From Promethearchaeota archaeon (GTDB lineage: Archaea > Asgardarchaeota > Heimdallarchaeia > Hodarchaeales > Hodarchaeaceae): 64,000 nt of DNA. The notes under the pieces are model-generated. The model did no database searches and was not told the origin of the DNA. It was given only the letters and a program-made list of their open reading frames with translations. This document shows, piece by piece, positions 45,815 through 64,000 of this stretch. Each line of letters starts with the position of its first letter. Position 1 is the first letter of the stretch. Both the position numbers and the translations under genes were made by a program. The DNA lies in the NCBI GenBank assembly GCA_048938105.1, contig JBHLMN010000008.1:96001-160000 (forward strand), given 5' to 3'.

Positions 45815-46090
45815 TTATACAATTTTAGGAGCCATGGGCTCCCCACAATGAGTGGGAACTGCTGCTTCTTTTCCACACGAGGCACAGCTGAATTTATCTT
45901 CTTCAAAATCCATAGGTTCACCACATTCTTCACAAGTTGGGAAGTCTTGTTGTGCACCACATTTTGCACATGTAAGCACTACCTTTCTTTCTGAAACCGC
46001 TTCTTGAGTTTCAACATGTTCTAATCCTTCTTTCCCTTTTGCTAATTCAGCATCTGATGGTGGGGTGTCTTTTTCTTCACTCATGATCAT
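45815..46090 (-). CDS. Small acidic Cys-rich (Zn-ribbon-like) protein
   Basis: AAGGAG RBS; CAKC, CEECGEPM, CASC and HCGEPM. Confidence 0.8.
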   Translation of the reverse strand: MIMSEEKDTPPSDAELAKGKEGLEHVETQEAVSERKVVLTCAKCGAQQDFPTCEECGEPMDFEEDKFSCASCGKEAAVPTHCGEPMAPKIV

Positions 46091-46412: not shown

Positions 46413-49400
46413 CTATCTTCTCCGTCTTCGAACAAGGATTACAGTAAGGCCAAGGACGAATACAGCTGGAATCAACGTAAATCCAGGAGCGGGCCCAGGT
46501 TCTTCCGATGAGGTTGTAGTGGTGCTTGTGGTGGTAGTTTCAGTGGTTTCAGGTGCAGCTTTGACCACTACCGTATAGGGATCCGTTGTTGAACCTTCGT
46601 ACCGGCCATTTTCCACTTTGTCTTCAGCGTAGAAATAAACATAGACCGTACCCGCTGCGCTTGAAACTTCCGTACTCGGAAGAGTTGCAGACCAGACAGC
46701 ACCTGTACCTTGAGTCATGCTCAATGGGAGGTATGTTGTTCCATCTATTGAATAATAGACAGTTACAAATTCCACACCGACACCATCATCAGTGACTTCT
46801 ATTGAAACGACGATATTATCTCCAACTTCTGGAGCTGTTGGAGAAAATGTTGGCCCTGTTAAGCTAAATATCGGTGCTGTTATGTCACTACTCCCGATTA
46901 TTATAGGGCTAGCAGTCATATAGTCTCCTGTATTACCGAGAGTGTCTTTTGCGTAAACCATGAAAGTCACATTGTCAAGCCATGCGAATGGACCTACAGT
47001 CGCTTCATAGTTCCCAGCGCCAATCGGAGTCATTTCCGTGGAACCACCAGTAGCTCCCTCAATGGTCCATTCCAGATATGCTGTTTCAATTCCAGAAGGA
47101 TCACCGATAATAGCGACGACTGTGATAGAATCTGTGTCATCAGGACTAGCTGGTGCGATATCGAAATCAAAAACCTCGGGTCCAATTATATCAGGACCAG
47201 CAATAGCAGTGAGGTTTATGGTTCTCCAAGCTGGTGAACCACTCATAAATCGGACAGCATTGTCGTCTGAAGAACCAGTCATCCATGTAGTAGTTCCATC
47301 AAGAACAGCTACCTGTCCTGCTTCATCGAGCCAGAGAAGGTCGTATACATCAGGATCCGCCCACTCAGCAGCATAGCTTTTTCCTACAGATACATCATCT
47401 TTCGTTATCTCATGCGCGGAAAATTCCTGGGGAGCATCACATCGGAAAGCTGAACCCATGAGGTAGAATGAACGAAAATCGACACCCCATTTGAGAAGTG
47501 TTGCTTTTGGAACCGCAACTTCCCAACCTAGGTCAGTGATCATTTTTACGGGTATTCCTTCAGTTGTCGCCGCGCCACCACCTGCCCAGAATAGAGTATT
47601 AACTTCATTTTTGTCAACAAACGTCTGGTCTTCATGGGCAAGAGAGATCGCAATTCCATTTCCACTCGTCCATAAAGGTAGACGTAGTTCATTACCACCA
47701 ACTGACCATTCATGAGTTGATGAAGAAATATCACTTGAAAGATGAAGAACTACTCTTGAAGCTGTTGTCAAATTATCGATTATCACTAAGAAGTAGAAGT
47801 TTGCCTGATCTTCAAAGATTCTGAGCTCTAATATATCTGCTGAACCGTCACCTGCGACTTTATCATCAGAGTCATTGTAGATGTAATCACCCAGAGTATT
47901 TCCGTCAAGATCTGCTCCTGTATCGTCATTGGACCAATCGCGGTAGATGAATACACCTTCAGCAGTGGTCCAATTTAAACCTTCCGCAGGGGCAGAACCA
48001 GGCCAATCGCTGATGTCTCCATCAATGGTTCGGGCAGGAACATAGAATCCAGAGGGTAAGATGAATATTATAACTGGATCTGATTCTGTAACACCATCCC
48101 TATCATCAATTACTTCGATATAATACCCCAGAAAATCACCACCTTCAAATGGCCCAATGGTTGCATTCCATATACCAAGTGCTGCGGTTCCTGTAATTAA
48201 GTTCATATCAACAACCGAAGAATCAATACTTAGATTAACATGTTGAACATAGTATCTTAGTTTCACAGATGCGATAGTTCCATCAGCATCAGAGGCATTG
48301 ACTTGGACATTGATCAGATCATCAGCAGTAATATCTTTCGTAGGAGTTTGTGTCACTTCATTGATTACTGGGTATTGATTTCTCAATTCAAGTACCGATG
48401 GAATGATGACTTCAAACCAATCCATGAACGGATCCGTAAGATTTCCATGGACTGGAACAGGAATGGTATCATTATAACCACCCTTACCTGCACCACTACC
48501 TGCAGCAGCGTAAAGTGCGATCTGGGTCGGGTAGCGGCCATCAAGTCCCATGAGATCAAATGGAATAACTATTTCTATAATATCTTCATCTGCAGACTTT
48601 TGTAAGTCCCATAGTGCTAGATCACCATATTCGTCGTAAGCATCAGCAGTTGCATTCCAGGCATACCATTTTCTATTGGTAACATCTAGATCCCACATAT
48701 TAATCATGAAATCAGCGAAATGTCGGTCAACACCAGTACCAATGTTTAAACCACCAACCCAAGTCCATGAAACATTAACACCCGAATTTGGGAACTGGTC
48801 TACATCAATACCAAGATGCCATCCACCATCAAAGGCACCACTGTCGATATCTCCTTTGAGAAGGATACCGACGCCGTCCGCAGCAGCAGTTACACTGATG
48901 TTGTGGAAATCAGCAAAATCATTGGCACCATCGTTGGCGTCAGTTAACGTATCGTAATTATTTGGCCAATCGGAATCATCACCGTCAGCAGTAAGAGCTG
49001 TAGCAAGTGCAGTTGTTTCAAGATCAACAACAGCAAAGTTTCCGAAAGTGTCCCAATCAGTCCATTCAGCATCATCGTTTGGATTGACTCCTGCAGGATC
49101 ATCAGGAGCAACATCCACAGAGGAATCACCACCAGCAACAAAGAAAGCAACAGCAATTTTAGACCAAACATCGAGTTTAAAGTCTTCAAATGCACTATAG
49201 GGAATCATCATTTCCCACGAGGTATTGGTATGAGCAGTTTGGACATATGGATCCCAATCGTCATGGTTACCCCATGCAGAGCCATCCCAACGAGCAAAGC
49301 CAAAGTTATCGGTCTGGTAATCCCAACAATAGAAGTTGTAATCAGCAGCATACATTGGATCACTTATATTGTGCTTACGACCCCAGGAGTCACCACCTTC

Positions 49401-50420
49401 GGTATATCCAGAGCCTGTAGTCTGATCAACATCAATGAGTGCACCAAATGCAGCATCACCTTTACTACTGTTGAAGTCCCCATTCACACCGAAATAAATA
49501 CCTTTCATGGTTGCCTTGGCATAGACTTCTTTTATTTCAGCAAAACCTGCACCTGTAGGAGCAGTGTCGGCGTCCGGATCATCAATGATGAGATCACCTG
49601 GATCCCAGTCAGCAAGATCACCATCAACGACAACAGGTTCACCTAGTGAGTCTAGATCAACTGTCACAAAGGTACTAATGACATCATAATCAGTACTTTC
49701 AGTGGCATAATCATTTGGGGTCACGGAAGCATCATCAGGTGCAATTTCAAATGCAGAGTCACCAGCAATAAAAACAGTAAATGCAATCGTACTCCAGACA
49801 TCGAGTTCAAAATCTGAAAAAGCAGAGAAAGGGATTGCCATTTCCCACGAGGTATTGGTATGGGCAGTTTGAACATATGGATCCCAGTCGTCATGGTTAC
49901 CCCATGCAGAGCCATCCCAACGAGCAAAGCCAAAGTTATCGGTTTGCCAGTCCCAGACATAGAAGTTGTACTCGGCAGCATATAATGGATCACTTATATT
50001 GTGCTTACGACCCCAGGAGTCACCACCTTCAGTATATCCTGAACCTGAAGTTTGATCAACATCGATGAGCATTCCCATTGCAGCATCCCCTCCTGTTGCA
50101 TTGAATATCCCTTCAAATGCAAAGTATATGTGGGTTTGAGATTTCGCTGCATATACTTTTTCAATGTCGGCCCATTTTTCTGCGTCTCCTGTTGGATCTG
50201 AGATCACTAATTCATTTCCTGTATAGTCCCATAAATGCCCGTCAAGATGCTTATTTGGGTTGTTTACTGTCATTTTAGGGGTTCCTAGGGAAGGAACAAC
50301 TCTTAAATTGGCTTTTTCAATGACATTTGACGGTGTAGAATACCCAATAGAGAAGAAAAATATCGTGACAAGCACTAGTGGAGCTATTTTCCTATTAAGA
50401 CATCTCAAAATTTGTTTCAC
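46413..50420 (-). CDS. Large acidic multidomain surface protein (tandem DOMON/glucodextranase-C-like domains, Ig-like stalk, PGF-CTERM)
   Basis: Signal peptide, repeated (V/I)DGD..DW domain starts, Asp/Trp-rich, and T-rich linker plus APGF-TM-RRRRR. Confidence 0.82.
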   Translation of the reverse strand: MKQILRCLNRKIAPLVLVTIFFFSIGYSTPSNVIEKANLRVVPSLGTPKMTVNNPNKHLDGHLWDYTGNELVISDPTGDAEKWADIEKVYAAKSQTHIYFAFEGIFNATGGDAAMGMLIDVDQTSGSGYTEGGDSWGRKHNISDPLYAAEYNFYVWDWQTDNFGFARWDGSAWGNHDDWDPYVQTAHTNTSWEMAIPFSAFSDFELDVWSTIAFTVFIAGDSAFEIAPDDASVTPNDYATESTDYDVISTFVTVDLDSLGEPVVVDGDLADWDPGDLIIDDPDADTAPTGAGFAEIKEVYAKATMKGIYFGVNGDFNSSKGDAAFGALIDVDQTTGSGYTEGGDSWGRKHNISDPMYAADYNFYCWDYQTDNFGFARWDGSAWGNHDDWDPYVQTAHTNTSWEMMIPYSAFEDFKLDVWSKIAVAFFVAGGDSSVDVAPDDPAGVNPNDDAEWTDWDTFGNFAVVDLETTALATALTADGDDSDWPNNYDTLTDANDGANDFADFHNISVTAAADGVGILLKGDIDSGAFDGGWHLGIDVDQFPNSGVNVSWTWVGGLNIGTGVDRHFADFMINMWDLDVTNRKWYAWNATADAYDEYGDLALWDLQKSADEDIIEIVIPFDLMGLDGRYPTQIALYAAAGSGAGKGGYNDTIPVPVHGNLTDPFMDWFEVIIPSVLELRNQYPVINEVTQTPTKDITADDLINVQVNASDADGTIASVKLRYYVQHVNLSIDSSVVDMNLITGTAALGIWNATIGPFEGGDFLGYYIEVIDDRDGVTESDPVIIFILPSGFYVPARTIDGDISDWPGSAPAEGLNWTTAEGVFIYRDWSNDDTGADLDGNTLGDYIYNDSDDKVAGDGSADILELRIFEDQANFYFLVIIDNLTTASRVVLHLSSDISSSTHEWSVGGNELRLPLWTSGNGIAISLAHEDQTFVDKNEVNTLFWAGGGAATTEGIPVKMITDLGWEVAVPKATLLKWGVDFRSFYLMGSAFRCDAPQEFSAHEITKDDVSVGKSYAAEWADPDVYDLLWLDEAGQVAVLDGTTTWMTGSSDDNAVRFMSGSPAWRTINLTAIAGPDIIGPEVFDFDIAPASPDDTDSITVVAIIGDPSGIETAYLEWTIEGATGGSTEMTPIGAGNYEATVGPFAWLDNVTFMVYAKDTLGNTGDYMTASPIIIGSSDITAPIFSLTGPTFSPTAPEVGDNIVVSIEVTDDGVGVEFVTVYYSIDGTTYLPLSMTQGTGAVWSATLPSTEVSSAAGTVYVYFYAEDKVENGRYEGSTTDPYTVVVKAAPETTETTTTSTTTTSSEEPGPAPGFTLIPAVFVLGLTVILVRRRRR
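49190..50070 (-). repeat. Intragenic tandem domain duplication (630-bp period)
   Basis: 49209-49440 is nearly identical to 49839-50070; both encode IDVDQT.GSGYTEGGDSWGRKHNISDP...FGFARWDGSAWGNHDDWDPYVQTAHTNTSWEM. Confidence 0.92.
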
Positions 50421-50688
50421 TCCAAAAATCTTTTAGTTACAGTTTTTTTAGGAAATTTCTAAAAAGTTTCATAATTCAATATTTTTAGAATTATCAAACT
50501 TTTATCTTTTCTTGTCTCTGAATCTCGTTGATTCTTTCATTAACATAATAGAGATTTATTCTCTTGTTAATGTTGTATTTTTTACTTTGATTTTCCCTGA
50601 ATTAAAGAGTATTGACCATTTTGGTTTCACTTTTTTAAATAATTTCTTATTCATTTATCATAATAGATTGTATAATTTTAATATTGAA

Positions 50689-53600
50689 TTATCCTGTTTT
50701 CCTTCGAGGTAGCACTAGATCTGGTTTTAATGCTATTGCAACAGCTAAAACTAAAATTATAGGTGTTAGCCACATTAAACCAAGATCTACAATTGATGAT
50801 CGATAATCGGGTGGGACTGGAGGTATCTTATATTGTACTTCAAGAATAATGGTATCACTGGCCTTAGAATTACCAAATATATCCTCTGCAACAATATTAA
50901 GATGCACCTCGGTTTTTGGGAAAAAGGGTCCGAGTTGAGCACTAGGATCACCTATGCCTGTAGTCCCATAGAACACATGCCCTCTCCGGTCAAATTCTAG
51001 ATCTCTTAGGACAAATGATTGACCCCCATTCAAACTGAGATTAAGTTTCATTGAACTAATAAAAGCAGAGGTAAAACCATAAGCACGCCTCACATCTGCA
51101 AAAGTTTCTTGTCTACTAAGATCTAGAGTCCCATTCTCATCTAAGAGACTCCAAACATCAGTCCAATAGTAATCCGTTGCACTAGCGTTAATTCTAATGA
51201 AATCATCGTCTGTGATCGTGTAATTAGTCGTAAATGGTGCCTTCAGAGAATTGTTAAGCTTATTATTTACCCACAATTCCACCCAGAATTGGCCAATCTC
51301 TGGAGGTTTTGTGTCTGAGGGTTGAATTTCAACAGACATTAATGATACTGTCCCCCCCTTATGATTAAATACATCATAAGCAGTGATTTTAAAGAACAGG
51401 GTAGCTCCTGTCCAACCACTAGTCAACCAAGTTGAATTATATGCTTGAAGCCATGCAGGGAAGTGAGCCTGGTAAGTTTCATTAGTACCTGCTGTTTTCG
51501 TCATTTTTAATGTTCCTTTCTCCCCATGCGTGGTATAAAATGAAAGTGTAGGTTTAGTCAATCCTCCAGTAGAGATTCCATCAGGATCAGTAATATTTGC
51601 TCTTATTGTGAAAGTTTGGTTATCAAGTACAGTTAGGTTCATTGGTACTGAATCGTATGAAATAACGAAAATATCTGTTTTAAAAATGACTGGACCTGGG
51701 ACTGATAAATCCACCGTTAATCCTTCTGTTATCCTATTGTCAGTAATATTCCCTATTAAATCAAAATATACTGGTGGGGGTAATAAAGAGAGATTATACG
51801 AAGTTGGATTAGGGTAAGTTAATACAACCATCTCACCCTTAATACTCCTATCTGGTTTAATACTATGGATAAAAAGGCTATTTTCAATTTCGAAGTATGC
51901 TACTGACCCAGCAATATTTACATTCCCAATGATTGACTCACCAAGAACAGTCATCTCATCGATGGCAGTAAAGACTCTACTTCCATCCCAATTGGTAATT
52001 ATCTGGGTTTCTTTTGGATTAAACAGATTTGTTGAGAAGAATGCATAGTCCCAGTTAAATGTAGACATATCCAAACTCAAATCCATGTCAGAATGCACAA
52101 AAACATCAGAGTCTCCCCCATCTTCCAGATCAAATAAAATAGCGATACTTGTGCTTGTTTCGTTAATATAGTGATCCATCTGTATAGCAATTATAACAGC
52201 ACTAAACTCTCTTTCCAAACTTGGATCTTCAACACCCCAAGCTACATCATGACGATCAAACCTATATCCAATAGAAATTCCACTAATATCAACTGAAGCT
52301 GGATCATCTGGAAGACCATTTAATGATCGAACTGTACCAATGTCAAATGAGTTAGAAGAGATGAGATTTGAAATAGGGGCGATTCCCATCTCCATATGAT
52401 TTGTTGTAAAATCATATTCCAAGAAAGAATGGAGCATTCGGGTATTTTTTGAAAAGTTAAGGGCTCCTGCTGGGATAATTTCATCATAACCTGGATCTGC
52501 ACCAGTCTCTTGGATTTTTGGTTCACTAGCTTTCCATGCCCAGGCGCCTGATGAAACATCAACGACATCAGGAAGATCAAACGGTTCTCCTTCTATTGTA
52601 CTTGTGATATTTTCTTTTGTAATTGTAAAAATGCCAAATCGTACAAGCTTTCCCTCGGGAGGTCGGATAATCTCCGTGGGGAGTGTAATATTCAAATATT
52701 TAGCAACTGTCAAAGGCCTACCAAAGATATCATAATCAAATTTGTCTTGATTTGAATAAATTTCAGCTTCATCAAATGTTTTATTAGAAATTACTTCTGT
52801 TGTATCGTTGTAAATCCAATAATAATTATCATTATCGTTAGCAGATCTAATCTCTAAAGTTCTATCCCAAGCTCCTATTGGGTTGACCGCTGCATCATTA
52901 CGAGTAGGTAAAAGGACTTTTCCACCAGGATAAAGGTCAATAGTAATAAAAATACTTACTTTTGACCAATCAATTGTCTCACGAGCTCTTTTATATGGAT
53001 TTGTGGCATAATCTATAGTTCCAGATCCTTTTCTTACATACTGTTCGATTGTATCATTAACCACAAAAATCCGGAAGGTTGTTTTGTTACTTGCATGATG
53101 TTGAATGGAAAAGAGTTTAAGGTTCGTTGAATAATTATTTGCAGCCCACGCTAGATTATAATCATCCCAAGGATCATTCGGCCCTTTTGGGATGTCCCAT
53201 GGAATATCCAGATAGATTTTCTCCCCTGTAGGGGTAAAGATTTTTAGTTCTCCTGTTAAAGGATTTTTATAGTCGTAATTGATGATCTCAGTAATCTTTT
53301 CGTTACCAAAGTCGACTTCTAACCAGCTATGAATCATAGATGTATTTCCAGCAAGTTCGACAGTATTATCATCACCAATAACATCAAAAATACCGCTGGA
53401 AACATCATCAGCCTCTCCACCAAGATCCGCGGTCATAAAATCGAAACAAGTAAATGCAGTAAAATTAAATTTATACGTGGAGACATCTTGCCCTGGTTTT
53501 AATCCTAAAAAGTGCCACGGTAAAGCCGTATAAACCGTCCTTGTTGTTGGACTATAATATGTTATGGTTGTTGTGTTTTTCCCTACTCGAGGATCATAAC

Positions 53601-54288
53601 GAGAAGCATCAGTACCAAATAGTGGAAGAATAGTATCTGGTAGGTCATCGTCAGCTCCGTTGATTAATCCTGTTTCATTAAGATACATGAACTCGTTATC
53701 CCAGGTATAACCTTTTTCATAGCCTATTGGATCATAAAGTCCCCAAGAATAGTTCCAAGTAAATTCTGGGTCCATATGGACTCTTGCTGCACTAAATCTC
53801 TGGCGGGAGAATATATCAAAAGTATCATTTGGATATCGGTCGTTTTCATCACCAGTATCATAGACAAAGTGGAGATCGACACCACCTAAGTCAGAATGGT
53901 AGCCCTTTGACCAGAAATCACCAGGATCACCACGAAGAGTCACATTTATGAAAAGATGTGTGTCATTCTTCCCAAATTCAAAGTACTGGAAATCAAAGTC
54001 AGCATCTTCAGGTTGAGCTCTCCCTAAAATTGTAATGAGATCATGGGAAGGATCATCGTAACTCAAAACTGAACCTTCTGGGTTAAATTCGAATGGTAAG
54101 TCCGAATCTTCAGTCGTGGATAATACTGGTGAGTCACTTCTAGATTTAATGGTATTAATATAATTATTTGTCGATTTACTGATAAAAAAACCCGATTTGG
54201 CAAAGAGAGAAGATTTAAAGGACAGAGTTATCGTAAATACAAGTATGGTCAAAATCAATGTAAATTTAAATCTATTTCCAGATCTCAT
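50689..54288 (-). CDS. Large secreted, C-terminally anchored surface protein of unknown function
   Basis: Signal peptide, DOMON-like starts (YDDPSHD..DFDF..F.F.KNDTHLFINV), internal repeat MIHSWLEVDF/MLHSFLEYDF, and a C-terminal TM with basic tail. Confidence 0.75.
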   Translation of the reverse strand: MRSGNRFKFTLILTILVFTITLSFKSSLFAKSGFFISKSTNNYINTIKSRSDSPVLSTTEDSDLPFEFNPEGSVLSYDDPSHDLITILGRAQPEDADFDFQYFEFGKNDTHLFINVTLRGDPGDFWSKGYHSDLGGVDLHFVYDTGDENDRYPNDTFDIFSRQRFSAARVHMDPEFTWNYSWGLYDPIGYEKGYTWDNEFMYLNETGLINGADDDLPDTILPLFGTDASRYDPRVGKNTTTITYYSPTTRTVYTALPWHFLGLKPGQDVSTYKFNFTAFTCFDFMTADLGGEADDVSSGIFDVIGDDNTVELAGNTSMIHSWLEVDFGNEKITEIINYDYKNPLTGELKIFTPTGEKIYLDIPWDIPKGPNDPWDDYNLAWAANNYSTNLKLFSIQHHASNKTTFRIFVVNDTIEQYVRKGSGTIDYATNPYKRARETIDWSKVSIFITIDLYPGGKVLLPTRNDAAVNPIGAWDRTLEIRSANDNDNYYWIYNDTTEVISNKTFDEAEIYSNQDKFDYDIFGRPLTVAKYLNITLPTEIIRPPEGKLVRFGIFTITKENITSTIEGEPFDLPDVVDVSSGAWAWKASEPKIQETGADPGYDEIIPAGALNFSKNTRMLHSFLEYDFTTNHMEMGIAPISNLISSNSFDIGTVRSLNGLPDDPASVDISGISIGYRFDRHDVAWGVEDPSLEREFSAVIIAIQMDHYINETSTSIAILFDLEDGGDSDVFVHSDMDLSLDMSTFNWDYAFFSTNLFNPKETQIITNWDGSRVFTAIDEMTVLGESIIGNVNIAGSVAYFEIENSLFIHSIKPDRSIKGEMVVLTYPNPTSYNLSLLPPPVYFDLIGNITDNRITEGLTVDLSVPGPVIFKTDIFVISYDSVPMNLTVLDNQTFTIRANITDPDGISTGGLTKPTLSFYTTHGEKGTLKMTKTAGTNETYQAHFPAWLQAYNSTWLTSGWTGATLFFKITAYDVFNHKGGTVSLMSVEIQPSDTKPPEIGQFWVELWVNNKLNNSLKAPFTTNYTITDDDFIRINASATDYYWTDVWSLLDENGTLDLSRQETFADVRRAYGFTSAFISSMKLNLSLNGGQSFVLRDLEFDRRGHVFYGTTGIGDPSAQLGPFFPKTEVHLNIVAEDIFGNSKASDTIILEVQYKIPPVPPDYRSSIVDLGLMWLTPIILVLAVAIALKPDLVLPRRKTG

Positions 54289-54294
54289 TTTCCT

Positions 54295-55809: not shown

Positions 55810-56027
55810 AATTAATTCTTCCAAAAGAAACCATTATCATGAGATGGAATGATCTTAGTATTTTTTTGAAGATTACGATGCCTCTTAATATTTTTTTTTG
55901 CCAACCTTTGAACTCATCTGATATAATTTTTCTTTAGAAAATCAAATTAGGGATGATATACTTAACGAAATTCTCAATAGAAAAATTAAAAGTTTAGTTC
56001 TATCAAGTAATTTTGAGGATTGGTTTC

Positions 56028-56258
56028 ATGAGTGGATCGACAAACAAAACTTCTTCCGAAGTTCCTCCCCATAGGCACTGCTATCAATGTGGTAAGGTTA
56101 TTTCTTTATCGAATGATTATTGTTCTCCAGAATGTGAAATAAAAGATCAAGAACGAATTAAGGATGTTGAATCAATAAAATTCAGTATGAGAATAATGGT
56201 CTTACTTGTAGCGGCTGCACTTGTTATAAATTTAATATTACCGTTGTTACTTCCTTGA
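56028..56258 (+). CDS. DUF2116-like Zn-ribbon membrane protein
   Basis: PPHRHC..CGK.I.....YCSPEC followed by a C-terminal TM; ATG at 56028. Confidence 0.78.
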   Translation: MSGSTNKTSSEVPPHRHCYQCGKVISLSNDYCSPECEIKDQERIKDVESIKFSMRIMVLLVAAALVINLILPLLLP

Positions 56259-56274
56259 ATGAGGGTCATCATCA

Positions 56275-56736
56275 TTGGTTAAAAAGAAAAAAAAGGAATC
56301 GGCCATTAATGTTACCCCACAAGATTTATTGAAAATAGTTCCAATTAAAAATCCCTTAGTGGAGGTTAAAAAGTATGACAGCGGGGAAATAGCACTCTTT
56401 CTAAAACCTGTGGAAACTAAACGTCGTGGTTTTGTCTCTAAACTCTTCCCTATGCCTAAAGGTAGAAGAATAGTATTAGATGAAATGGGAACCCATTTCT
56501 GGAATTGTTGTAATAGTAAGAACAGAGTTAAAGATATAATTAAGGTGTTTCAAGAAAGTTATAAAATGAATGAGCTCGAAGCAAGAATTTCAATTTCATT
56601 GTTTTTAGAAAACTTGACAAAAAGACGCCTCGTTGGTTTTATCTTACCTCATTCTTTACGGAAAAAATATGAGAAACAAGATAAACAATTTCTCCAATTG
56701 ATTGTTTCTGATTTGCCAGAAAGTGCTCGAAAATGA
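56275..56736 (+). CDS. Stand-alone PqqD-family (RRE-like winged helix) protein
   Basis: LDEMGTHFW..C....VKDII..F...Y.....EA..SI..FL..L..RRLV PqqD signature. Confidence 0.8.
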   Translation: MVKKKKKESAINVTPQDLLKIVPIKNPLVEVKKYDSGEIALFLKPVETKRRGFVSKLFPMPKGRRIVLDEMGTHFWNCCNSKNRVKDIIKVFQESYKMNELEARISISLFLENLTKRRLVGFILPHSLRKKYEKQDKQFLQLIVSDLPESARK

Positions 56737-56760
56737 GAATTTACTGTAGGAGTATCTAAA

Positions 56761-59736
56761 TTGAATTTTTTCAGCCCAAAACATTTAGTACATTCTTTCT
56801 TAGTTATTTTTTGTCTTTTTAGTGCTTTTCTAGCAATATCAGCTTGTGCTCTCAATCCAAATAACCCAAAACATGTACTAACTGTTAATAACCAAACTTC
56901 AAGTATAAATCTTCACGTAATTGACACTTTTGGGAATTCAGTCCAAAATGCTTCAGTTTGGCTATATGGAGAGGAAAATATTGACTCAGCTCAGGGCCAA
57001 TATCAATTAGCCGCATATCCAACAGAAACAGGACGATATGGAAATGTTTCAATTCCAATAATTCTAAAGCAGTCACAATATTTACTAATATCACGTGTCC
57101 ATATTAATGAGTCAGTGGTTAACTTTGGAGCGGTAAGAATTATTTCAAATCAAAGTTCTGAGCTATTTATTACCTTAATTTTACATTCATATTCTGAAAT
57201 TAGAATTTCTGGCACGTTTTGGTTGATAGAAAAACCTCAAAGGGATTTCGAAGGTTTTCAATTATCAGTTGTTCCAGAATCGTCAATTGATCTCCCAATC
57301 TTCGGAAAACCTTTGGAAGGAACTGAATTTGAAGGTGTTGTATATTTACCTCAAGAAATCGACTACACTCTCCACATTACCGCCTTTACAGCAAATGATG
57401 TTTCCCCTTGGACTATTATCAACTTAAATTCATCAAAAATTATATCGTTCATCAAATTGGGAAATATGTCAATTTCTGAGATTTCAATACAACAAAACTT
57501 AGGTTTCATTTGGAGTGAAATTGGATTAACTAATCATGAAATAAAAAAATTACAACAACTTGGATTTTATACTATTACGTACGAAACAACAATGAATGAA
57601 GTACGTCAACTTTATAATGAAGCAGAAGTTAAGTATCGAGATTCAAACTATAGTATATCCCATTATTACCTTCGAGAGGCCTATCTAAAGTTAAAGAATG
57701 TGAAAGACTCGCTATCTTACGTTACAAACGTATCCAAAAACAGTATTTTGATTTTATGGGGGATTATGGGCGTTTTTTCTCTTATTTTAGGGTGGTTTTT
57801 CAGTGAGAAATTCCCTAGATTGTTAGCTATCTATTTAATTACTCACGCTTGTCTTGCTATTTTCCTTTTCATATTTTTTCCTGCTATGAAATCCGTGAAT
57901 CCGAATGAGTTGATTTTTTTCCCCTTGGTTACTATTTTTATAATCCCTATTAGCTATCAATTATTTAATTGGCTATCAAAGGAAGATCAAACAGAAGATC
58001 CTCAAATTCTCTCTACATTTATAGCTAGTTTTTCCCTAGCTAAAAGAAATCTAAAAAGGCGAAAATTTAGGAGTATTCTAACTGCTTCAAGTATCGTCAT
58101 TATGATATTTGGATTTATCGCTTTGACAAGTTTTGGTTCCCATTCGCAAGTGATTTTTCAGTCAATACCTCGGATTCATGGGAGTCCTTCCTCTGACGGT
58201 CTTTTGATAAGAAGTGCTAATTATTCAAAAGGATATATATCTACTTCAACTCCTTTTGATGACCTTTCACATAACGAATTTGATATTGAACCTCCAGAGG
58301 GGTTTGAGATTCTTACTATCAGTGAACGGTGGGAAAATTATCCTGTGTGGGGGAATTACGGACAAGGATCGCTTCTAAATGAAAATAATGTGTTTAATAT
58401 CTCTGGTATTCTAGGATTCTCTTTTACCAAAGAAAATACATTCACGAATTTTACTCAAATGTTAACAGAGGGAAGACTTCCTTCTAGCTCTGATGAAGCA
58501 CTCTTACCCTCATATTTAAAACAAAAAGGTCTTTTGATCAATAGTTCAGTTCTTATTACCAGTATTACCCCAAAGGCGACATTTGGAGTTAGGATCTCTG
58601 GATTTTATGATGAAGAAAAATATGCTACTGCCATTGATTTAGATGGTTATTTTATGCGTCCTCAATACTTGTCCATATCGCAATCAGGTCCAGTAGCTTC
58701 GGCAGCAGATCCGAATCATCTGATTTTTATTACAGCTGAGAAAGCTAAACTTCTTAATTCAGTTCATCTCAATCGCATAAATATTAAATTAGTTCAATCA
58801 AGCCTCATTGATTATCGTTTCCTTGGAACATATTTTGCTGTTTCTATTGGTTTTGAAGCGTGGATAAGTCATGAAGGAACGATTAAACGTGCTTATTATG
58901 GAGAGAGTTTAATAGTAGAAGGTATAGAACCCATTGTTATCATAATGGTTGTAACAAGTCTGACAATAGCAAATGTCATGTACCGAAGGATCATTGAAAG
59001 AAGAAAGGAAATATATACTTCTAATGCTATCGGACTGAATCCAGCTCATATTACATTCATATTCTTTGGCGAAAGTCTAGTACTAGGTTTAATTGCTGGT
59101 GTTATTGGATATATTCTAGGTGTAAGTTCATATACTCTGTTCATATTCTTTAATCTCAATCTCACAGTAATTCCTAAAATTGAGGTAAGTTGGTCGATTT
59201 TTGCAATAATTTTCGCAGTAATAGTATCAATAGTCAGCTCTGTCTTACCCTCTTATTCAGCAGCAAAATCTGTCTCTTCCATGCATGTAAGAAAATGGTC
59301 TAAAGACAAGAAAATGAGTCCAGTTATGGAAGAAGGGAGTTACTCCTTTTTAATACCTATTCGCATTCATGAGTCGCAAGTAAAGGATTTTTTAGAATTT
59401 ATAGAGCGCATATTCTCTTCGAATACTTCCCCACGAATGACATTTCATACACAAGAGGTTTTAAAGAAAGAAAAGGATATACCTGATGCATATGATTTAA
59501 CAATATGTTTTAATCTTCGTGTTAGTCAGAAGGGCCATTCTCGAGCATTTCCAATGGATTGCGAACTTTTCCTTACAAGAACGAGTAGTCGCTTCTTTGA
59601 ACCACATGTTATAAGTAATTATCCTTCTAGTTTTGGAAATCCTCCAAAGGGGTACGATAAACTCGTAGAACTAGTTATTTCCCATATCAGAAAGCAAATA
59701 TTAGTTTGGGATGCAAATCAACATATGTTAAAATAA
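56761..59736 (+). CDS. Giant FtsX/MacB-like permease with an extra N-terminal extracellular region
   Basis: SLAKRNLKRRKFRSILT (MacB TM1), ERRKEIY..NAIGLNP, VLPSY.AAK, and N-terminal VIDTFGN.V.NASV.L Ig-like start. Confidence 0.85.
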   Translation: MNFFSPKHLVHSFLVIFCLFSAFLAISACALNPNNPKHVLTVNNQTSSINLHVIDTFGNSVQNASVWLYGEENIDSAQGQYQLAAYPTETGRYGNVSIPIILKQSQYLLISRVHINESVVNFGAVRIISNQSSELFITLILHSYSEIRISGTFWLIEKPQRDFEGFQLSVVPESSIDLPIFGKPLEGTEFEGVVYLPQEIDYTLHITAFTANDVSPWTIINLNSSKIISFIKLGNMSISEISIQQNLGFIWSEIGLTNHEIKKLQQLGFYTITYETTMNEVRQLYNEAEVKYRDSNYSISHYYLREAYLKLKNVKDSLSYVTNVSKNSILILWGIMGVFSLILGWFFSEKFPRLLAIYLITHACLAIFLFIFFPAMKSVNPNELIFFPLVTIFIIPISYQLFNWLSKEDQTEDPQILSTFIASFSLAKRNLKRRKFRSILTASSIVIMIFGFIALTSFGSHSQVIFQSIPRIHGSPSSDGLLIRSANYSKGYISTSTPFDDLSHNEFDIEPPEGFEILTISERWENYPVWGNYGQGSLLNENNVFNISGILGFSFTKENTFTNFTQMLTEGRLPSSSDEALLPSYLKQKGLLINSSVLITSITPKATFGVRISGFYDEEKYATAIDLDGYFMRPQYLSISQSGPVASAADPNHLIFITAEKAKLLNSVHLNRINIKLVQSSLIDYRFLGTYFAVSIGFEAWISHEGTIKRAYYGESLIVEGIEPIVIIMVVTSLTIANVMYRRIIERRKEIYTSNAIGLNPAHITFIFFGESLVLGLIAGVIGYILGVSSYTLFIFFNLNLTVIPKIEVSWSIFAIIFAVIVSIVSSVLPSYSAAKSVSSMHVRKWSKDKKMSPVMEEGSYSFLIPIRIHESQVKDFLEFIERIFSSNTSPRMTFHTQEVLKKEKDIPDAYDLTICFNLRVSQKGHSRAFPMDCELFLTRTSSRFFEPHVISNYPSSFGNPPKGYDKLVELVISHIRKQILVWDANQHMLK

Positions 59737-59784
59737 AAACCTCTTGCTTTGAGCTTAAAATGAATATGATTGAAGCTTATTCAG

Positions 59785-60531
59785 CTAGTTGATCTCGTAA
59801 GTAAAGGGAAAATCTTCATAGGTTATCATAACTTTCATTCTCTTTTGAGTTCGAGTTATTTCCCCATCTCTTAACCAAGATACTTTATCAGCAATATCAA
59901 TGAGTTTGAGATCATGAGTACTGTTAATTACTGTTACTCCTGTTTCCTGGTTTAGTTCTCTTAACAGTTCCACTATTTGAAAACCTGTGTGAAGATCTAA
60001 ATTTGCAGTTGGTTCATCAGCTAGAATTATTGGCGGTTCATTTGCTAAGGCTCGAGCAATAGCGACTCGTTGTTGCTGTCCTCCTGATAGCTCATTAGGT
60101 TTATGATTATAGCGTCCTTCTAATCCTACTCTCTTGAGGACTTCTTTTCCTCTTTTCTTGCGCTCTTCTAAGGATAAACCTTTGAAAACCATTGGAATCA
60201 TAACGTTGTCTAAAGCAGTAAGTACTGGAATTAAATTAAATGTCTGAAAGATGAAACCAATTTTATAAACTCTTATAGAAGCCATTTCATTTGCATTCAT
60301 CCCCGTTAATGATTCACCGTCAATTATAACTTTACCTTTAGTTGGAGTGTCAAGAGCTCCAACCATATTAAGTAAGGTCGTTTTTCCAGAGCCACTAGGT
60401 CCCATAATTACTCTATATTCACCTCGGGGAATATCTTCTGACAATCCCCGCAGGGCATGGACATTTTCTCCCCTTAAGAAATATGTTTTCCAGACATCTT
60501 GCAGAGATATTACAGTATCCTTGTTTCCCAT
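59785..60531 (-). CDS. LolD/MacB-type ABC ATPase
   Basis: [32 protein letters not shown] and STHD. Confidence 0.93.
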
Positions 60532-60561
60532 TATTCTTCCTTCATTAGTTTAAACTATCGC

Positions 60562-61278
60562 CTATACTTCCACTTCAATTCGTGTTTCGATCCTTTCTAC
60601 TCGACCGCTCCTAATCCAGAGAATACGATCAGAAATATCTATCATCTTTAAATCATGAGTTGAGGTCACAATTGTCGTGCCTCTTTCCTTATTTAATTGC
60701 CGAAGCAGTTCGATTATTTCTAATCCAGTCTCTAAATCAAGATTTCCAGTTGGTTCATCTGCTAAAATAATCGATGGGTCATTTGCTAATGCACGTGCTA
60801 TAGCTACTCGTTGTTGTTGGCCTCCAGACAGTTCTGCAGGCTTATGATCTAATCGATCTCCCAAACCAACGATATCCAACAATTCAGTAGCTTTTTTTCG
60901 CCTTTCTTCCCTTGGGGTACCCGTAAATATCATAGGCAATTCTAAATTCTCTAGAGCTGACAGTACAGGTAGGAGGTTAAAAGTTTGGAAAATATAACCA
61001 ATTTTTCGGGCTCGTAACCATGCTAATTCATAAGCATCTAATTTAGATATATCTACCTCATCGATATATACCTTACCACTCTCAGGTTTGTCCAATCCAC
61101 CAATAATATTGAAAAGTGTGGTTTTACCACTTCCAGAAGGCCCCATTATTGACATATATTCTCCCCTTTGTACTTTCATAGTGACACCCCGAAGAGCAGG
61201 AACAGAGATTATACCACCTTCAAGATAATAGGTTTTTTCAACATCTCTTGTTTCAATGGTATATTCATAATATTCCAT
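60562..61278 (-). CDS. LolD/MacB-type ABC ATPase
   Basis: Same motifs as the neighbour. AGGAGG RBS places the start at ATG 61278, not 61347. Confidence 0.93.
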
Positions 61279-61295
61279 GTTATTATTGTACCTCC

Positions 61296-61904
61296 TTATA
61301 CTTCGAACCGTAAAGCTTCTGCTGGATCTAGTCTTGCTCCTCGCCAAATTGGATAAAGACTAGCAACAACGCTTGAAATAATCCCAATTAGAATTGATAA
61401 CAATATTAAGGAAGGAATTAGACCTACATCTGAAATTAATGCTTCGACAACTTTATCTAAACCGAAACGATAGGAATAAATTGCGCCACCAGTGATAATA
61501 CCGATTAACGAGCCAATTAATCCTCCTATAGCTCCTAAAATTATTGATTCGATTAAAAACATCTTTAAGATGTGAGAAAAAGTTCCTCCCAAGGTTTTAT
61601 ATACACCTATTTCTTTTGTCCTTTCGGTTACTGCCATTAGCATTGAATTTGTTATTCCTACTAATGCGACAAGGAGTGATATTCCTGCTAACCACCATGT
61701 ATATTCAGCAATAGCAGTACTCTCCCTTTCTATATAATTTAAGATATTACTCATAATTAATAAGGCTGTGAGAAAAGCTAAACCAAGAATAATGCCAAAA
61801 GATGTGATTATACTCCTTGATGGTCGTTTGGTTATATTTTCTGTTGATATTTTAATTGCTTCACTTAAAGGAAACTTGCTTCGGGGGAGTTTTACTTTAC
61901 CCAA
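61296..61904 (-). CDS. Minimal FtsX-like permease (no extracellular domain)
   Basis: RSIITSFGIILG, GITNSMLMAVTERTKEIG..KTLG, FLIES and SLYP...A.LDPAEALR. Confidence 0.9.
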   Translation of the reverse strand: MGKVKLPRSKFPLSEAIKISTENITKRPSRSIITSFGIILGLAFLTALLIMSNILNYIERESTAIAEYTWWLAGISLLVALVGITNSMLMAVTERTKEIGVYKTLGGTFSHILKMFLIESIILGAIGGLIGSLIGIITGGAIYSYRFGLDKVVEALISDVGLIPSLILLSILIGIISSVVASLYPIWRGARLDPAEALRFEV

Positions 61905-61945
61905 TACTAATCATTCCTTAAAGAGGTTAGTAATGAGAGGAATTA

Positions 61946-62296
61946 CTAAACAAGCTTATGCCATTCAACATGATTTTGTACGAGATCAATGAGCTGTTTT
62001 TTCAATATTTCTGCAGCTTTTTTTTCTGTTAATCTGGTCGCATTCCAAGTTACAAATGGTACATAAAATACAGCCTGATTTAATTTGATCTGTTTTTTTG
62101 GTGTGTCAATTTTTTCAAATGTAATGAACCCAAGCTCACGTAAATAGCAGGTATCATTAGGACAGAGGATATCAATCTCATTCATTTCTTTTTTCAGAAA
62201 GAGTAACTGGTAATCTTCAGTACTTTCTATCATTTTTCCACAAGGGCACTGTACAGTATTTTTTTGAGAGTTTTCAGTCTTTTGCAATGCAACCAC
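61946..62296 (-). CDS. Hypothetical Cys-containing protein (CPC..CPNxxC)
   Basis: 116-aa ORF co-oriented with the ABC genes, with four Cys in two clusters. Confidence 0.72.
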   Translation of the reverse strand: MVALQKTENSQKNTVQCPCGKMIESTEDYQLLFLKKEMNEIDILCPNDTCYLRELGFITFEKIDTPKKQIKLNQAVFYVPFVTWNATRLTEKKAAEILKKQLIDLVQNHVEWHKLV

Positions 62297-62450
62297 ATGA
62301 TGTCCTTCATTGTAGTAAATTTTCTTATTCTATTATTTCGACTATTTTAAACATTCTTATCACTATTTATTAAAAACTATTCCTTGAAGCTAATTATTTA
62401 ACTTTACTCAAGAACTGATTTGAATAACATACTTTAACAAGGAGAAGAAA

Positions 62451-63407
62451 ATGGTAAAAACAGCTGGTTGGGATAAACTCACTTTTCAAGTTCCTGAGGA
62501 TTGGCAATTATCAATTAGTAAAAGGAGCGATGAAAAGAATAAGCAAAAAGGGCTGTTCATACTAAAGAACCTTGACCAGCAGATACAGATGAGTGTTAAA
62601 TGGGAACAGATACCAAAAAAGGCGCCAAATCCTAAGATTATCATTGATTCTTTCATTAAAGATTTAAGAAAGAAATATTCAAAAAAAACTCCTATAGTCA
62701 TTCGTTCTCGTAGGAAAATCAAAATTAAAGGCCATGACGCGGATTATGTTTTTTTTGAGAGTAAGAAGAAGAAAGAGCAAGCTATCGTTATTTCATGGAT
62801 TTGTACTCCTCATGAACGGATTTTCTTGAGTTTTTGGCCTTTTAAAATAGAGAAAAACGTGAATAATAAGAATAAAATAGACAAAATTATTGAATCTATT
62901 GAATGTCACTCCGAATGGGTTTACTGGACTGGCCCAGGTATCAGTATCAGAGTACCATCAGAGTTAGAATTAAAAGATTCCTCATTTGTTATAGGTACAT
63001 CTTACCTGCACTTCATTAATGAAAATAATTCTTTTTATATCGAAAGAATAGGTTTAGCGAAACAAAGGATGGCAAAATATGTTGATCTCCTAGAATTTTA
63101 TGAATCTGAATATATTCCTAAGATGGAAAAAAGAATTGATGGATTTACGTATAAAAAGCCAAAAAAGTTTAAAACACGAAGAAAAGCAATAAATGAGATC
63201 TGGAAAAGCTTTTCATTCGTTAAAACTGGAAAATTCTTGAAAAAAGAACAAGTTCCAGTGATTCAATATTTCTGGCATAATGTTTCACTGAACTGTTTTT
63301 TTATTATTGCCACTGATTTAAGATCACCTGAAATTAGAATTTCCAGTCTGAAACCTAAGCAAGTGTTTGGATCGTTATTAAAACAACTTTTTACCCAAAA
63401 CAACTGA
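62451..63407 (+). CDS. Hypothetical basic protein with two repeated domains (PsbP/Mog1-like start motifs)
   Basis: AAGGAG RBS; WDKLTFQVPEDWQL and WTGPGISIRVPSELEL begin the two halves. Confidence 0.7.
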   Translation: MVKTAGWDKLTFQVPEDWQLSISKRSDEKNKQKGLFILKNLDQQIQMSVKWEQIPKKAPNPKIIIDSFIKDLRKKYSKKTPIVIRSRRKIKIKGHDADYVFFESKKKKEQAIVISWICTPHERIFLSFWPFKIEKNVNNKNKIDKIIESIECHSEWVYWTGPGISIRVPSELELKDSSFVIGTSYLHFINENNSFYIERIGLAKQRMAKYVDLLEFYESEYIPKMEKRIDGFTYKKPKKFKTRRKAINEIWKSFSFVKTGKFLKKEQVPVIQYFWHNVSLNCFFIIATDLRSPEIRISSLKPKQVFGSLLKQLFTQNN

Positions 63408-63636
63408 TTATTCTTTTAGAAGTAGAATTACCGATAAAAGTACAGAGGAATTTTACACTTTCATTTCTAATCAGTTTTTTCTAATCCTTGTATTTATTTT
63501 CGATAAAAAAAAAGAGAAAATGTTTTTTTGCAACATAAAAATTAAAAGGTAATCTACATCCATTTCATCTAATCCCATCATTACATCAGAACATCTAGAA
63601 TTAACGTAAAAAACCATTGAACAGGTGTTTTAATTG

Positions 63637-64000
63637 ATGTTTTCCAAAAAACACCAAATTATTATTACTTTGTTATTTATACTTTATATTGTTATAGCTT
63701 TTATGGAGAATGATTTTAGTTCAAATCATTTGATTAGTAGTGAACCTTTTAGTAGTTATGAATTAAGAGACAATGAACTAGAACCATTCACCATAAAAAA
63801 TGATCCTCTTTTCGATTTAGAAGTAAATGCTAAAATTGAAAGTACGCTTTTATCATCAACCGAGAGAAAGAATATTGAAGATCATATCAAAGCATTAAGT
63901 TTTGAAGAGATGGGGTATCAGGGGAGTAGGGTTACCTGTTATGGTCAGGGTTTAACCCAAGCAACTTCTGATCCTCAATATATGAACGATTTTTATGATG
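63637..64000 (+). CDS. Exported protein beginning with an M28-peptidase-like domain (partial)
   Basis: Not in the ORF track. AGGTG RBS; MFSKKHQIIITLLFILYIVIAF signal/TM, then NIEDHIKALS...GSRVTCYG; open to the window end. Confidence 0.65.
   Translation, partial: MFSKKHQIIITLLFILYIVIAFMENDFSSNHLISSEPFSSYELRDNELEPFTIKNDPLFDLEVNAKIESTLLSSTERKNIEDHIKALSFEEMGYQGSRVTCYGQGLTQATSDPQYMNDFYD

Follow-up and report, generated by a model that had tools for sequence, protein, structure and literature searches.

A conserved composite membrane system with type VII ABC and OPT-fold components in Hodarchaeales, possibly for oligomer uptake

Type VII ATP-binding cassette (ABC) systems, such as MacB, LolCDE, FtsEX, BceAB, HrtBA and YbbAP (with the ATPase MJ0796), are built on a four-transmembrane (4-TM) FtsX module with a MacB-like domain between TM1 and TM2. 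For the OPT family (TC 2.A.67), a survey of 2011 described the prokaryotic members as biochemically uncharacterised, noted that their genome context often suggests peptide uptake, and drew no link to ABC systems (PMC3061005). Here we report a locus encoding components of both kinds in the genome (5.85 Mb, ~36% GC) of a Promethearchaeota archaeon of the Hodarchaeales. We analysed a stretch of 64,000 nucleotides (assembly GCA_048938105.1, contig JBHLMN010000008.1, positions 96,001 to 160,000; G000:C49:96001-160000 in our handles), hereafter the window, in which the feature block extends from position 46413 on. The block is one copy of a widely conserved composite membrane system, and we found no paper describing such a system. 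Positions are given in window numbering; L002, L007 and similar handles denote fetched loci, G000 the source genome, G002 and G004 related genomes, and G079 a Bathyarchaeia genome.

An initial annotation, made from the letters of the window alone, had proposed an undescribed envelope system at this locus, and the cluster indeed matched no characterised transporter. When open reading frames (ORFs) and domains were re-derived, the genes it listed (three surface proteins, a Zn-ribbon protein, a PqqD-like protein, FtsX permeases, a Cys protein, ATPases and a 318-aa protein) proved real and lay where it had placed them, and the divergent gap, put at roughly 200 bp, measured 188 bp. Its "exported M28-like protein", which runs off the window end, is M28-like as described but is in fact the N-terminus of a 1652-aa permease with M28, MacB_PCD and FtsX domains; thus, the cluster has three FtsX proteins, not two. 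Reading the contig onward, we found the genes of this permease, a 242-aa protein, a DUF6785 protein and an OPT-like permease in tight order, the last two being the OPT-like genes that had been guessed to lie nearby. The block runs ~8.2 kb beyond the window end, the OPT-like gene included; beyond that gene, on the opposite strand, lie a GT-C (PMT_2) protein with a Glucodextran_C domain and then a 1342-aa GH57 protein with a signal or anchor, and these conserved neighbours reach ~14.8 kb past the window end. Hereafter, the four genes for the Cys4 protein, the minimal FtsX permease (mini-FtsX) and two ATPases are called the engine operon, and DUF6785, giant permease and OPT-like protein together the triad. 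Literature searches on DUF6785, DUF6784 and PF20581, and on FtsX, M28 and OPT combined, returned nothing, and those on DUF2116, type VII ABC systems in archaea and Hodarchaeales returned nothing relevant to the cluster.

Recurrence of the gene set within and between genomes

The gene co-occurrence check called for by the initial annotation was borne out, as a second, diverged set of the components is present in the source genome and further sets lie in 10 other loci of Hodarchaeales-type metagenome-assembled genomes (MAGs). The second copy, cluster B, lies on contig C14 of the source genome with gene orientation partly changed, and is related to the window copy, cluster A, through one-to-one pairs of ten components at 24-69% identity, among them PqqD (33%), the 318/310-aa proteins, Cys4, mini-FtsX, ATPase X (69%), ATPase Y (67%), the giant M28 permease, DUF6785 and the OPT-like protein. 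The 10 MAG loci keep the gene order of cluster B, and 9/10 type B loci inspected in other MAGs end with a homolog of the 242-aa protein. In G004, the whole of cluster A is syntenic, from the gene of the 1335-aa surface protein through that of GH57. A third type, cluster C, was observed in related genomes, where an operon of Cys4, mini-FtsX, ATPase Y and ATPase X is accompanied by a 579-aa FtsX/MacB_PCD permease, a 739-aa OPT-like protein and a separate 406-aa PA+M28 peptidase, and six TldD/PmbA genes surround the operon. We found the engine operon in each of the three Hodarchaeales cluster types, in Bathyarchaeia and in two further Heimdall families, and in one more lineage it is convergent to a 1074-aa FtsX gene, the same arrangement as in the window.

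The phyletic profiles of the components coincide exactly or nearly so. Among 60 relatives, DUF6785 was present in 12 genomes, all of one genus, and 12/12 carried both Cys4 and the 318-aa protein; three further genomes had the engine or type C only, and one incomplete genome had a fragment of the 318-aa protein only. Among 101 Bathyarchaeia genomes, the OPT-like protein was found in 5, the 318-aa protein in exactly the same 5, and Cys4 in those 5 and 2 others. The engine genes (ATPase, Cys4, mini-FtsX, ATPase) are clustered by themselves in 3/5 of these genomes, and a fourth shows ATPase and Cys4 before its contig breaks off. The PqqD gene adjoins the 318-aa gene, or is close to it, in 3/5; the triads are encoded elsewhere, up to six per genome. 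G079, for example, has 6 OPT-like copies and one engine. The PqqD gene adjoins a 318-aa family gene in Hodarchaeales B clusters, Bathyarchaeia and Latescibacterota, and in Latescibacterota the OPT-like, 318-aa and PqqD genes share one operon. These results demonstrated that the engine, the PqqD and 318-aa pair and the triads co-occur at the genome level even when encoded apart.

To follow the triad further, metagenome contigs were scanned with an alignment of the OPT-like protein, which yielded 80 loci, most at 26-34% identity. A giant (~1500-aa) permease was encoded within the locus in 69/80 and DUF6785 in 38/80; where 5 kb or more of flank was available on each side (n=23), the permease gene was directly adjacent in 20 and DUF6785 present in 16. 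The named carriers included Bathyarchaeia, Thermoproteota, Baldrarchaeia, Latescibacterota, Gemmatimonadota and WOR-3. The suggestion in the initial annotation that clusters of PqqD, FtsX, M28 and OPT-like genes occur in other archaea and some bacteria proved sound; components of the system co-occur in Bathyarchaeia, Latescibacterota, Gemmatimonadota and WOR-3. Recurrent neighbours in the metagenomic loci were mixed, both sugar- and peptide-related, and stand-alone DUF6785 genes adjoined heparinase-like, fucosidase and CBM9 genes. A recurrent 345-aa neighbour was considered as a disguised homolog of the 318-aa, 242-aa, PqqD or Cys proteins and was rejected (hhalign probabilities < 3%). Taken together, these patterns argue that the parts very probably form one functional system.

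Engine, permeases, accessory and surface proteins

The features of the block, its downstream extension and the related clusters are collected in table 1. Just upstream of the block lie a CitMHS/ArsB-type transporter gene (44009-45691) and a gene for a small Zn-finger protein (45815-46090), which in G004 are not kept with the block.

Table 1. Features of cluster A (window numbering, or locus L002 beyond the window) and selected features of type B and type C clusters
Feature	Position	Strand	Remarks
Surface protein, 1335 aa	46413..50420	-	N-terminal signal, C-terminal TM anchor, Glucodextran_C-like module at residues ~785-1080
Surface protein, 1199 aa	50689..54288	-	Signal and C-terminal TM anchor, no Pfam match
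Surface protein, 509 aa	54295..55824	-	Signal, Glucodextran_C-like module at residues ~30-330, C-terminal TM anchor
Divergent intergenic region, 188 bp	55825..56012		Surface-protein genes on one side, Zn-ribbon/PqqD/permease operon on the other
DUF2116 Zn-ribbon protein, 81 aa	56013..56258	+	Pfam E 1.4e-9; C-terminal TM helix at 61-79
PqqD/RRE-like cytoplasmic protein, 153 aa	56275..56736	+	Pfam PqqD 30.6 bits, cut-off 23.4
Large FtsX permease, 991 aa	56761..59736	+	Pfam FtsX; 8 predicted TM
ABC ATPase X, 248 aa	59785..60531	-	MJ0796/MacB/LolD type, catalytic motifs all intact
ABC ATPase Y, 261 aa as drawn, probably 238 aa	60562..61347	-	Motifs intact; likely start ATG at 61278
Minimal FtsX permease (mini-FtsX), 202 aa	61296..61904	-	Pfam FtsX E 1e-20; 4 TM, no extracytoplasmic domain
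Cys4 protein, 116 aa	61946..62296	-	QCPCG...CPNxxC; marks the ABC "engine" operon
Lys-rich cytoplasmic protein, 318 aa	62451..63407	+	Widespread unnamed family; partner of the PqqD-like protein
Giant permease, 1652 aa (first 122 codons in window)	63634..64000, on as L002:1634-6592	+	M28-like, MacB_PCD and FtsX
242-aa protein	L002:6599-7327		Downstream of the 1652-aa permease gene, beyond the window
DUF6785 protein, 940 aa	L002:7328-10150		Downstream of the 242-aa gene, beyond the window
OPT-like permease, 676 aa	L002:10169-12199		After the DUF6785 gene; Pfam OPT above cut-off
~740-aa anchored protein, type B loci	L010:19338-21560, L013:19444-21657, L017:19615-21894, L011:19330-21579, L035:7199-9448
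Type C cluster	L125 (G002:C31:26001-46000) and L124 (G004:C101:3001-23000)		Six TldD/PmbA around the engine operon

By its Pfam domains and ATPase motifs, the block carries the type VII (MacB/FtsX-type) ABC permease fold together with cognate ATPases. Pfam FtsX was found in the 991-aa, 202-aa and 1652-aa proteins, and MacB_PCD in the 1652-aa protein. The two large permeases share one predicted layout, made up of an N-terminal TM helix, an ectodomain, three TM helices, FtsX TM1, a MacB-like outer domain, TM2-4 and a cytoplasmic tail domain of ~150 aa. They differ in the ectodomain, which spans ~300 aa without M28 in the 991-aa permease versus ~930 aa in the 1652-aa permease; residues 256-929 of the former align with positions 745-1415 of the hidden Markov model (HMM) of the giant-permease family, so that the match holds from the juxtamembrane region onward and the N-terminal ectodomain is different. 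The 202-aa protein consists of nothing but the 4-TM FtsX module, without an outer domain, and the mini-FtsX HMM maps onto TM1 and TM2-4 of the giant permeases, flanking the outer-domain insert. We also considered whether the N-terminal TM and 3-TM region of the giant permeases hides a further, degenerate FtsX module, but there was no HMM signal for it. The model of the C-terminal cytoplasmic domain (pLDDT 84) has a generic alpha+beta fold, and its fold matches, KA1/AMPK-C, Bet v1/START and Mog1/PsbP-like, are all generic (Foldseek E > 4e-3; VIA Z up to 9.1).

The nearest solved relative of ATPase X is MJ0796 (E 3e-72), followed by MacB and LolD, and the Walker A, signature motif, Walker B with its Glu, and H-loop are invariant in the alignments of both ATPases. 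Drawn at its longest, the ORF of ATPase Y shares 52 nt with the end of the mini-FtsX gene, and the orthologs start at the position of an internal Met (ATG 61278); this ATG is probably the true start. The Cys4 protein belongs to a rare family, with only 20 cluster representatives in a set of 1.84 billion proteins. Its confident model (pLDDT 88) had no PDB match by Foldseek (E > 0.2), and complex prediction with mini-FtsX and both ATPases gave a score of 0.31, with the mark at 0.32. As a universal part of the system Cys4 was ruled out, since none was found in a Latescibacterota genome with the triad and some homologs stand alone. In Bathyarchaeia engine loci, a gene of ~630 aa lies between the Cys4 and mini-FtsX genes (L128:10114-12015 and L130:11571-13442, both minus strand) and is possibly a further component.

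The ectodomain of the giant permeases carries a degenerate peptidase domain. In a sample of 32 family members, Pfam detected FtsX in 32/32, M28 in 31/32, MacB_PCD in 24/32 and PA in 11/32, and two family members had a weak Pfam Nicastrin match. In an alignment of the M28 domain with the Vibrio aminopeptidase (1AMP/2ANP), a His occupies the position of the general base Glu151; over the 32 members this position is His in 29 and Glu in 1, the catalytic Glu thus being absent in 31/32. The metal ligand Glu152 is unconserved, and the His97 position is occupied by His in 16 and Tyr in 15. Judged from these residues, the M28 domain of the giant permeases is not a canonical active aminopeptidase, whereas the separate 406-aa M28 protein of type C clusters keeps all catalytic residues. 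The public labels "M28 family peptidase" and "antimicrobial peptide transport permease" are probably misleading. Cluster B of the source genome also holds an extra 1252-aa M28-FtsX permease without a MacB outer domain, which together with the GH4 and GH130 insertion described below falls within L007:13340-17098 and L008:1145-5625 (contig C14).

The 676-aa protein belongs by sequence to the OPT family (TC 2.A.67 / PF03169), with 34.9 bits to Pfam OPT against a cut-off of 25.8 and an alignment that reaches from position 105 to 621 of the 623-position model. By hhalign, DUF6785 is a homolog of this protein (probability 97.5%, E 6e-12); thus, the giant permease gene is flanked by two OPT-fold genes. 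A MAG of Brocadiaceae carries five tandem DUF6785 paralogs (L023:6231-16320), with no FtsX permease in the 21.5-kb locus.

Among the accessory proteins, the PqqD-like protein has a Pfam PqqD domain and matches NCBIfam lasso-type models far below their family cut-off (29.6 vs 80 bits); the maturase and precursor that would place it in a pathway for ribosomally synthesised and post-translationally modified peptides (RiPPs) are missing from its context. In the ORFs of the block and its downstream extension, Pfam revealed neither a substrate-binding protein nor an EAA-loop permease nor a RiPP maturase; the initial annotation had seen none of these in the window. The 318-aa family shows a faint PsbP-like resemblance only, the 242-aa protein has a predicted YbjN/CesT/DUF3156-like fold (TM 0.60), and profile searches of the PDB with either family gave no match. 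The DUF2116 Zn-ribbon HMM had no match in other loci, its gene being confined to type A clusters (with an ortholog in G004). In cluster B of the source genome, GH4 and GH130 genes are inserted between the PqqD and 310-aa genes, an insertion absent from other type B loci, and a 1029-aa protein encoded directly upstream of the PqqD gene (L007:9658-12747) has a weak C-terminal zf-RING_2 match (E 0.0018).

The three surface proteins each have an N-terminal hydrophobic signal and a C-terminal TM anchor. They had been described as an array of DOMON-like proteins, which holds for the 1335-aa and 509-aa proteins, the 1199-aa protein having no Pfam match. The domain in question is Pfam Glucodextran_C, which we take to belong to the DOMON clan; it is common to the 1335-aa, 509-aa and downstream PMT_2 proteins, and 5/5 copies tested matched (best E 1.6e-10). 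Syntenic orthologs in G004 share 56% (1335 aa), 64% (1199 aa) and 70% (509 aa) identity, and synteny with G004 ends just past the 1335-aa gene. Just downstream of type B clusters, a ~740-aa protein with a signal, a weak Big_7 match and a C-terminal TM anchor appears to be the counterpart of these proteins. Owing to the synteny within the genus and to this analogous protein, we counted the surface proteins as possible members of the system; that they are its working partners is slightly less probable than an even chance.

Uptake and its alternatives

We proposed that the block is the type A copy of a three-module system, whose most likely role is the uptake of oligomeric nutrients, a reading to which we give even odds. 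The first module would be an ABC engine made of Cys4, the 4-TM mini-FtsX and two different ATPases of MJ0796/LolD type. The second, present as one or more cargo modules, would comprise a giant FtsX/MacB-type permease, usually with a degenerate PA/M28 outer domain and sometimes with another fold (as in the 991-aa protein), together with DUF6785 and the OPT-like protein. The third would consist of cytoplasmic accessories, namely the pair of PqqD/RRE-like (RiPP recognition element) and 318-aa proteins, and the 242-aa protein with its YbjN/CesT-like predicted fold. Mini-FtsX and the giant permease may together make up an asymmetric membrane dimer, similar to LolCE, that sits on a heterodimeric ATPase; ATP hydrolysis would move the outer pseudo-peptidase and MacB-like domains. 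These outer domains would bind an oligomer outside the cell and feed the OPT-fold permeases with it, or gate them, so that it enters the cell through these permeases. The gene counts suggest that a single engine may serve several cargo modules, in the manner of the shared module of energy-coupling factor (ECF) transporters.

The associated enzymes bear most directly on the direction of transport. Type A clusters encode GH57 with a signal or anchor, hence extracellular, and Glucodextran_C surface proteins; type B clusters encode GH130, GH2, GH4 and a Zn-dependent alcohol dehydrogenase; and type C clusters encode six TldD/PmbA proteins and an intact M28 peptidase. None of the type B or type C enzymes has a signal peptide, and no other transporter was identified in the type A, B and C loci. 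Uptake is favoured because enzymes without signal peptides need imported substrates and the loci offer no other transporter. Of the two roles offered in the initial annotation, import of polymers or export and processing of surface proteins, the former is thus preferred, as oligomer import. Taken as such, the assignment to uptake is about evenly balanced. The different enzyme sets of the clusters favour substrate-specific importer paralogs, a pattern read from gene content, and the substrates may be alpha-glucan oligomers for type A, beta-mannoside or N-glycan-type oligomers for type B and peptides for type C; these are guesses, because the neighbouring enzymes are heterogeneous. More tentatively, the system may represent a new, hybrid uptake class, in which a shared engine docks interchangeably on substrate-specific modules, each made of a giant permease whose dead-peptidase ectodomain would act as receptor and of two OPT-fold channels; mechanotransmission would serve import instead of export, and an RRE-type protein would be a structural or regulatory adaptor outside RiPP pathways.

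Several observations weigh against uptake by a single system. We know of no type VII ABC system that works in import, those characterised all acting to export, extract or activate. Contact between the parts of the system is presumed from gene association, and outside Hodarchaeales the ATPases are rarely beside the triad (about 3-6/80 loci); the link between engine and triad there thus rests on genome-level co-occurrence, whose counts overstate independent events because the genomes may be close kin. Cys4 was not found in the Latescibacterota genome that carries the triad, and some Cys4 homologs (L121, L122, L131 and L135-L137) stand alone in contexts without FtsX or ABC genes, so the family may act outside the engine too. 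The surface proteins are common only within the genus, and the neighbouring enzymes of the metagenomic loci are heterogeneous (URO-D-like, B12-radical SAM, Gfo/Idh/MocA and NamZ). The GT-C (PMT_2) glycosyltransferase beside the type A copy fits envelope biogenesis equally well. In addition, the OPT proteins characterised so far work by proton symport, independently of any ATPase (PMC3061005).

Export or envelope biogenesis is accordingly a serious rival to uptake, even if we consider it unlikely. In this alternative, the motor and pseudo-peptidase would act on the neighbouring surface (S-layer-like) glycoproteins by processing, anchoring, folding or releasing them, or would govern an extracellular enzyme as FtsEX governs cell-wall hydrolases, and the OPT-fold proteins would export or recycle a precursor or by-product. 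The best solved relatives, MacB, LolD and FtsE, belong to type VII systems that do extracytoplasmic work or export; anchored surface proteins lie beside both type A and type B clusters, with the PMT_2/Glucodextran_C glycosyltransferase adjoining the former; and a peptide-binding domain (PqqD/RRE, by Pfam) together with a chaperone-like predicted fold (YbjN/CesT-like) recalls secretion systems. However, the surface proteins bear ordinary N-terminal signals and are unlinked to the triad outside Hodarchaeales, and type C has no surface protein, yet has six TldD/PmbA peptidases without signal peptides. More generally, the catabolic enzymes without signal peptides in the loci require import.

A second alternative is that independent units merely lie side by side, namely a MacB exporter of the antimicrobial-peptide type, stand-alone OPT importers, an orphan PqqD and S-layer-like proteins. 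The public annotation of the permeases as "ABC-type antimicrobial peptide transport system permease" and the usual distance of the ATPases from the triad outside Hodarchaeales agree with it, and eukaryotic OPT proteins work alone (PMC3061005). This explanation is nonetheless already disfavoured and appears improbable, since the whole set is duplicated as one-to-one pairs, the permease directly adjoins the OPT-like gene in 20/23 well-flanked loci and this pairing spans archaeal and bacterial phyla, and separately encoded parts share exact or near-exact phyletic profiles. Least probable, and by our estimate very improbable, is a RiPP-like pathway in which a precursor presented by PqqD/RRE would be matured by a LanC-like toroid or by TldD/PmbA and leave the cell through the ABC system: a PqqD domain above the Pfam cut-off, a type B 798-aa protein whose family, in a profile search of the PDB, gave a weak LanC-like stretch of about 70 residues (E 0.004), TldD/PmbA genes in type C and B12-radical SAM genes near 10/80 metagenomic loci speak for it, but neither a maturase family nor an obvious precursor gene turned up in the ORFs of clusters A and B (for small precursor ORFs no systematic search was made), the 798-aa protein is missing from the type A copy, PqqD co-occurs with 318-aa and OPT-like genes rather than modifying enzymes, and type C, which has the TldD/PmbA genes, has no PqqD nearby, while G013, with type C only, has no 318-aa protein.

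Under the preferred reading of oligomer uptake by one modular system, several consequences would follow. If the parts work together, they would represent a new operating mode for both type VII ABC motors and OPT permeases, and the PqqD/RRE fold would have a non-RiPP role. A dead M28 ectodomain like those of nicastrin and the transferrin receptor is present in prokaryotes, including close archaeal relatives of eukaryotes. The system, often multi-copy in Bathyarchaeia, Hodarchaeales, Latescibacterota and WOR-3, may be a main route to detrital glycans and peptides, and several of these lineages are considered important for carbon turnover in sediments.

Comparison with known systems

Two identities with described transporters were rejected. 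A classical type I ABC importer does not fit, as neither a substrate-binding protein nor a BPD_transp-type (EAA-loop) permease is encoded in the block or its downstream extension. LolCDE was discarded because one subunit has no outer domain while the others measure 991-1652 aa, the NCBIfam lolCE model scores 61.5 bits against a cut-off of 362, and the host is an archaeon. Type VII ABC systems as a class are among the closest, with the FtsX module and the inserted MacB-like domain, ATPases nearest to MJ0796/MacB/LolD, and two unlike permease subunits as in LolC/LolE. The system of the block differs from them in that its mini-FtsX subunit is without an outer domain, its two ATPases are distinct, and its large subunit adds an N-terminal TM, a 300-930-aa ectodomain, three TM helices and the ~150-aa cytoplasmic tail domain. 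It is also constantly linked to OPT-fold permeases, to the PqqD/318-aa pair and, in archaea, to Cys4, partners that no known type VII system has.

The remaining likenesses concern single parts or the logic of the whole. The non-catalytic ectodomains of M28B type (transferrin receptor and nicastrin) resemble that of the giant permease in placing PA and M28 on the outer face of a membrane protein with the catalytic Glu lost; here, however, the domain is fused to an ABC permease and keeps His at the general-base position in 29/32 members, and any kinship with the eukaryotic proteins would be putative. The PqqD-like protein shares its domain, by Pfam and the NCBIfam lasso-type models, with the discrete RRE/PqqD proteins of RiPP pathways, but has no maturase or precursor nearby and is paired with the 318-aa protein. 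ECF transporters (EcfAA'T with several S components) are alike in logic only, as two different ATPases and a small membrane subunit are encoded together, and genomes whose cargo modules, as many as six, lie at other loci have a single set, the sharing being deduced from these counts; there is no sequence relationship, and the cargo modules are FtsX/OPT-fold rather than S components. As to the OPT family itself, the 676-aa protein matches along most of the Pfam model and DUF6785 is its homolog; whereas the characterised OPTs act autonomously by proton symport, in this system the gene of a giant ABC permease is flanked by two diverged OPT-fold genes.

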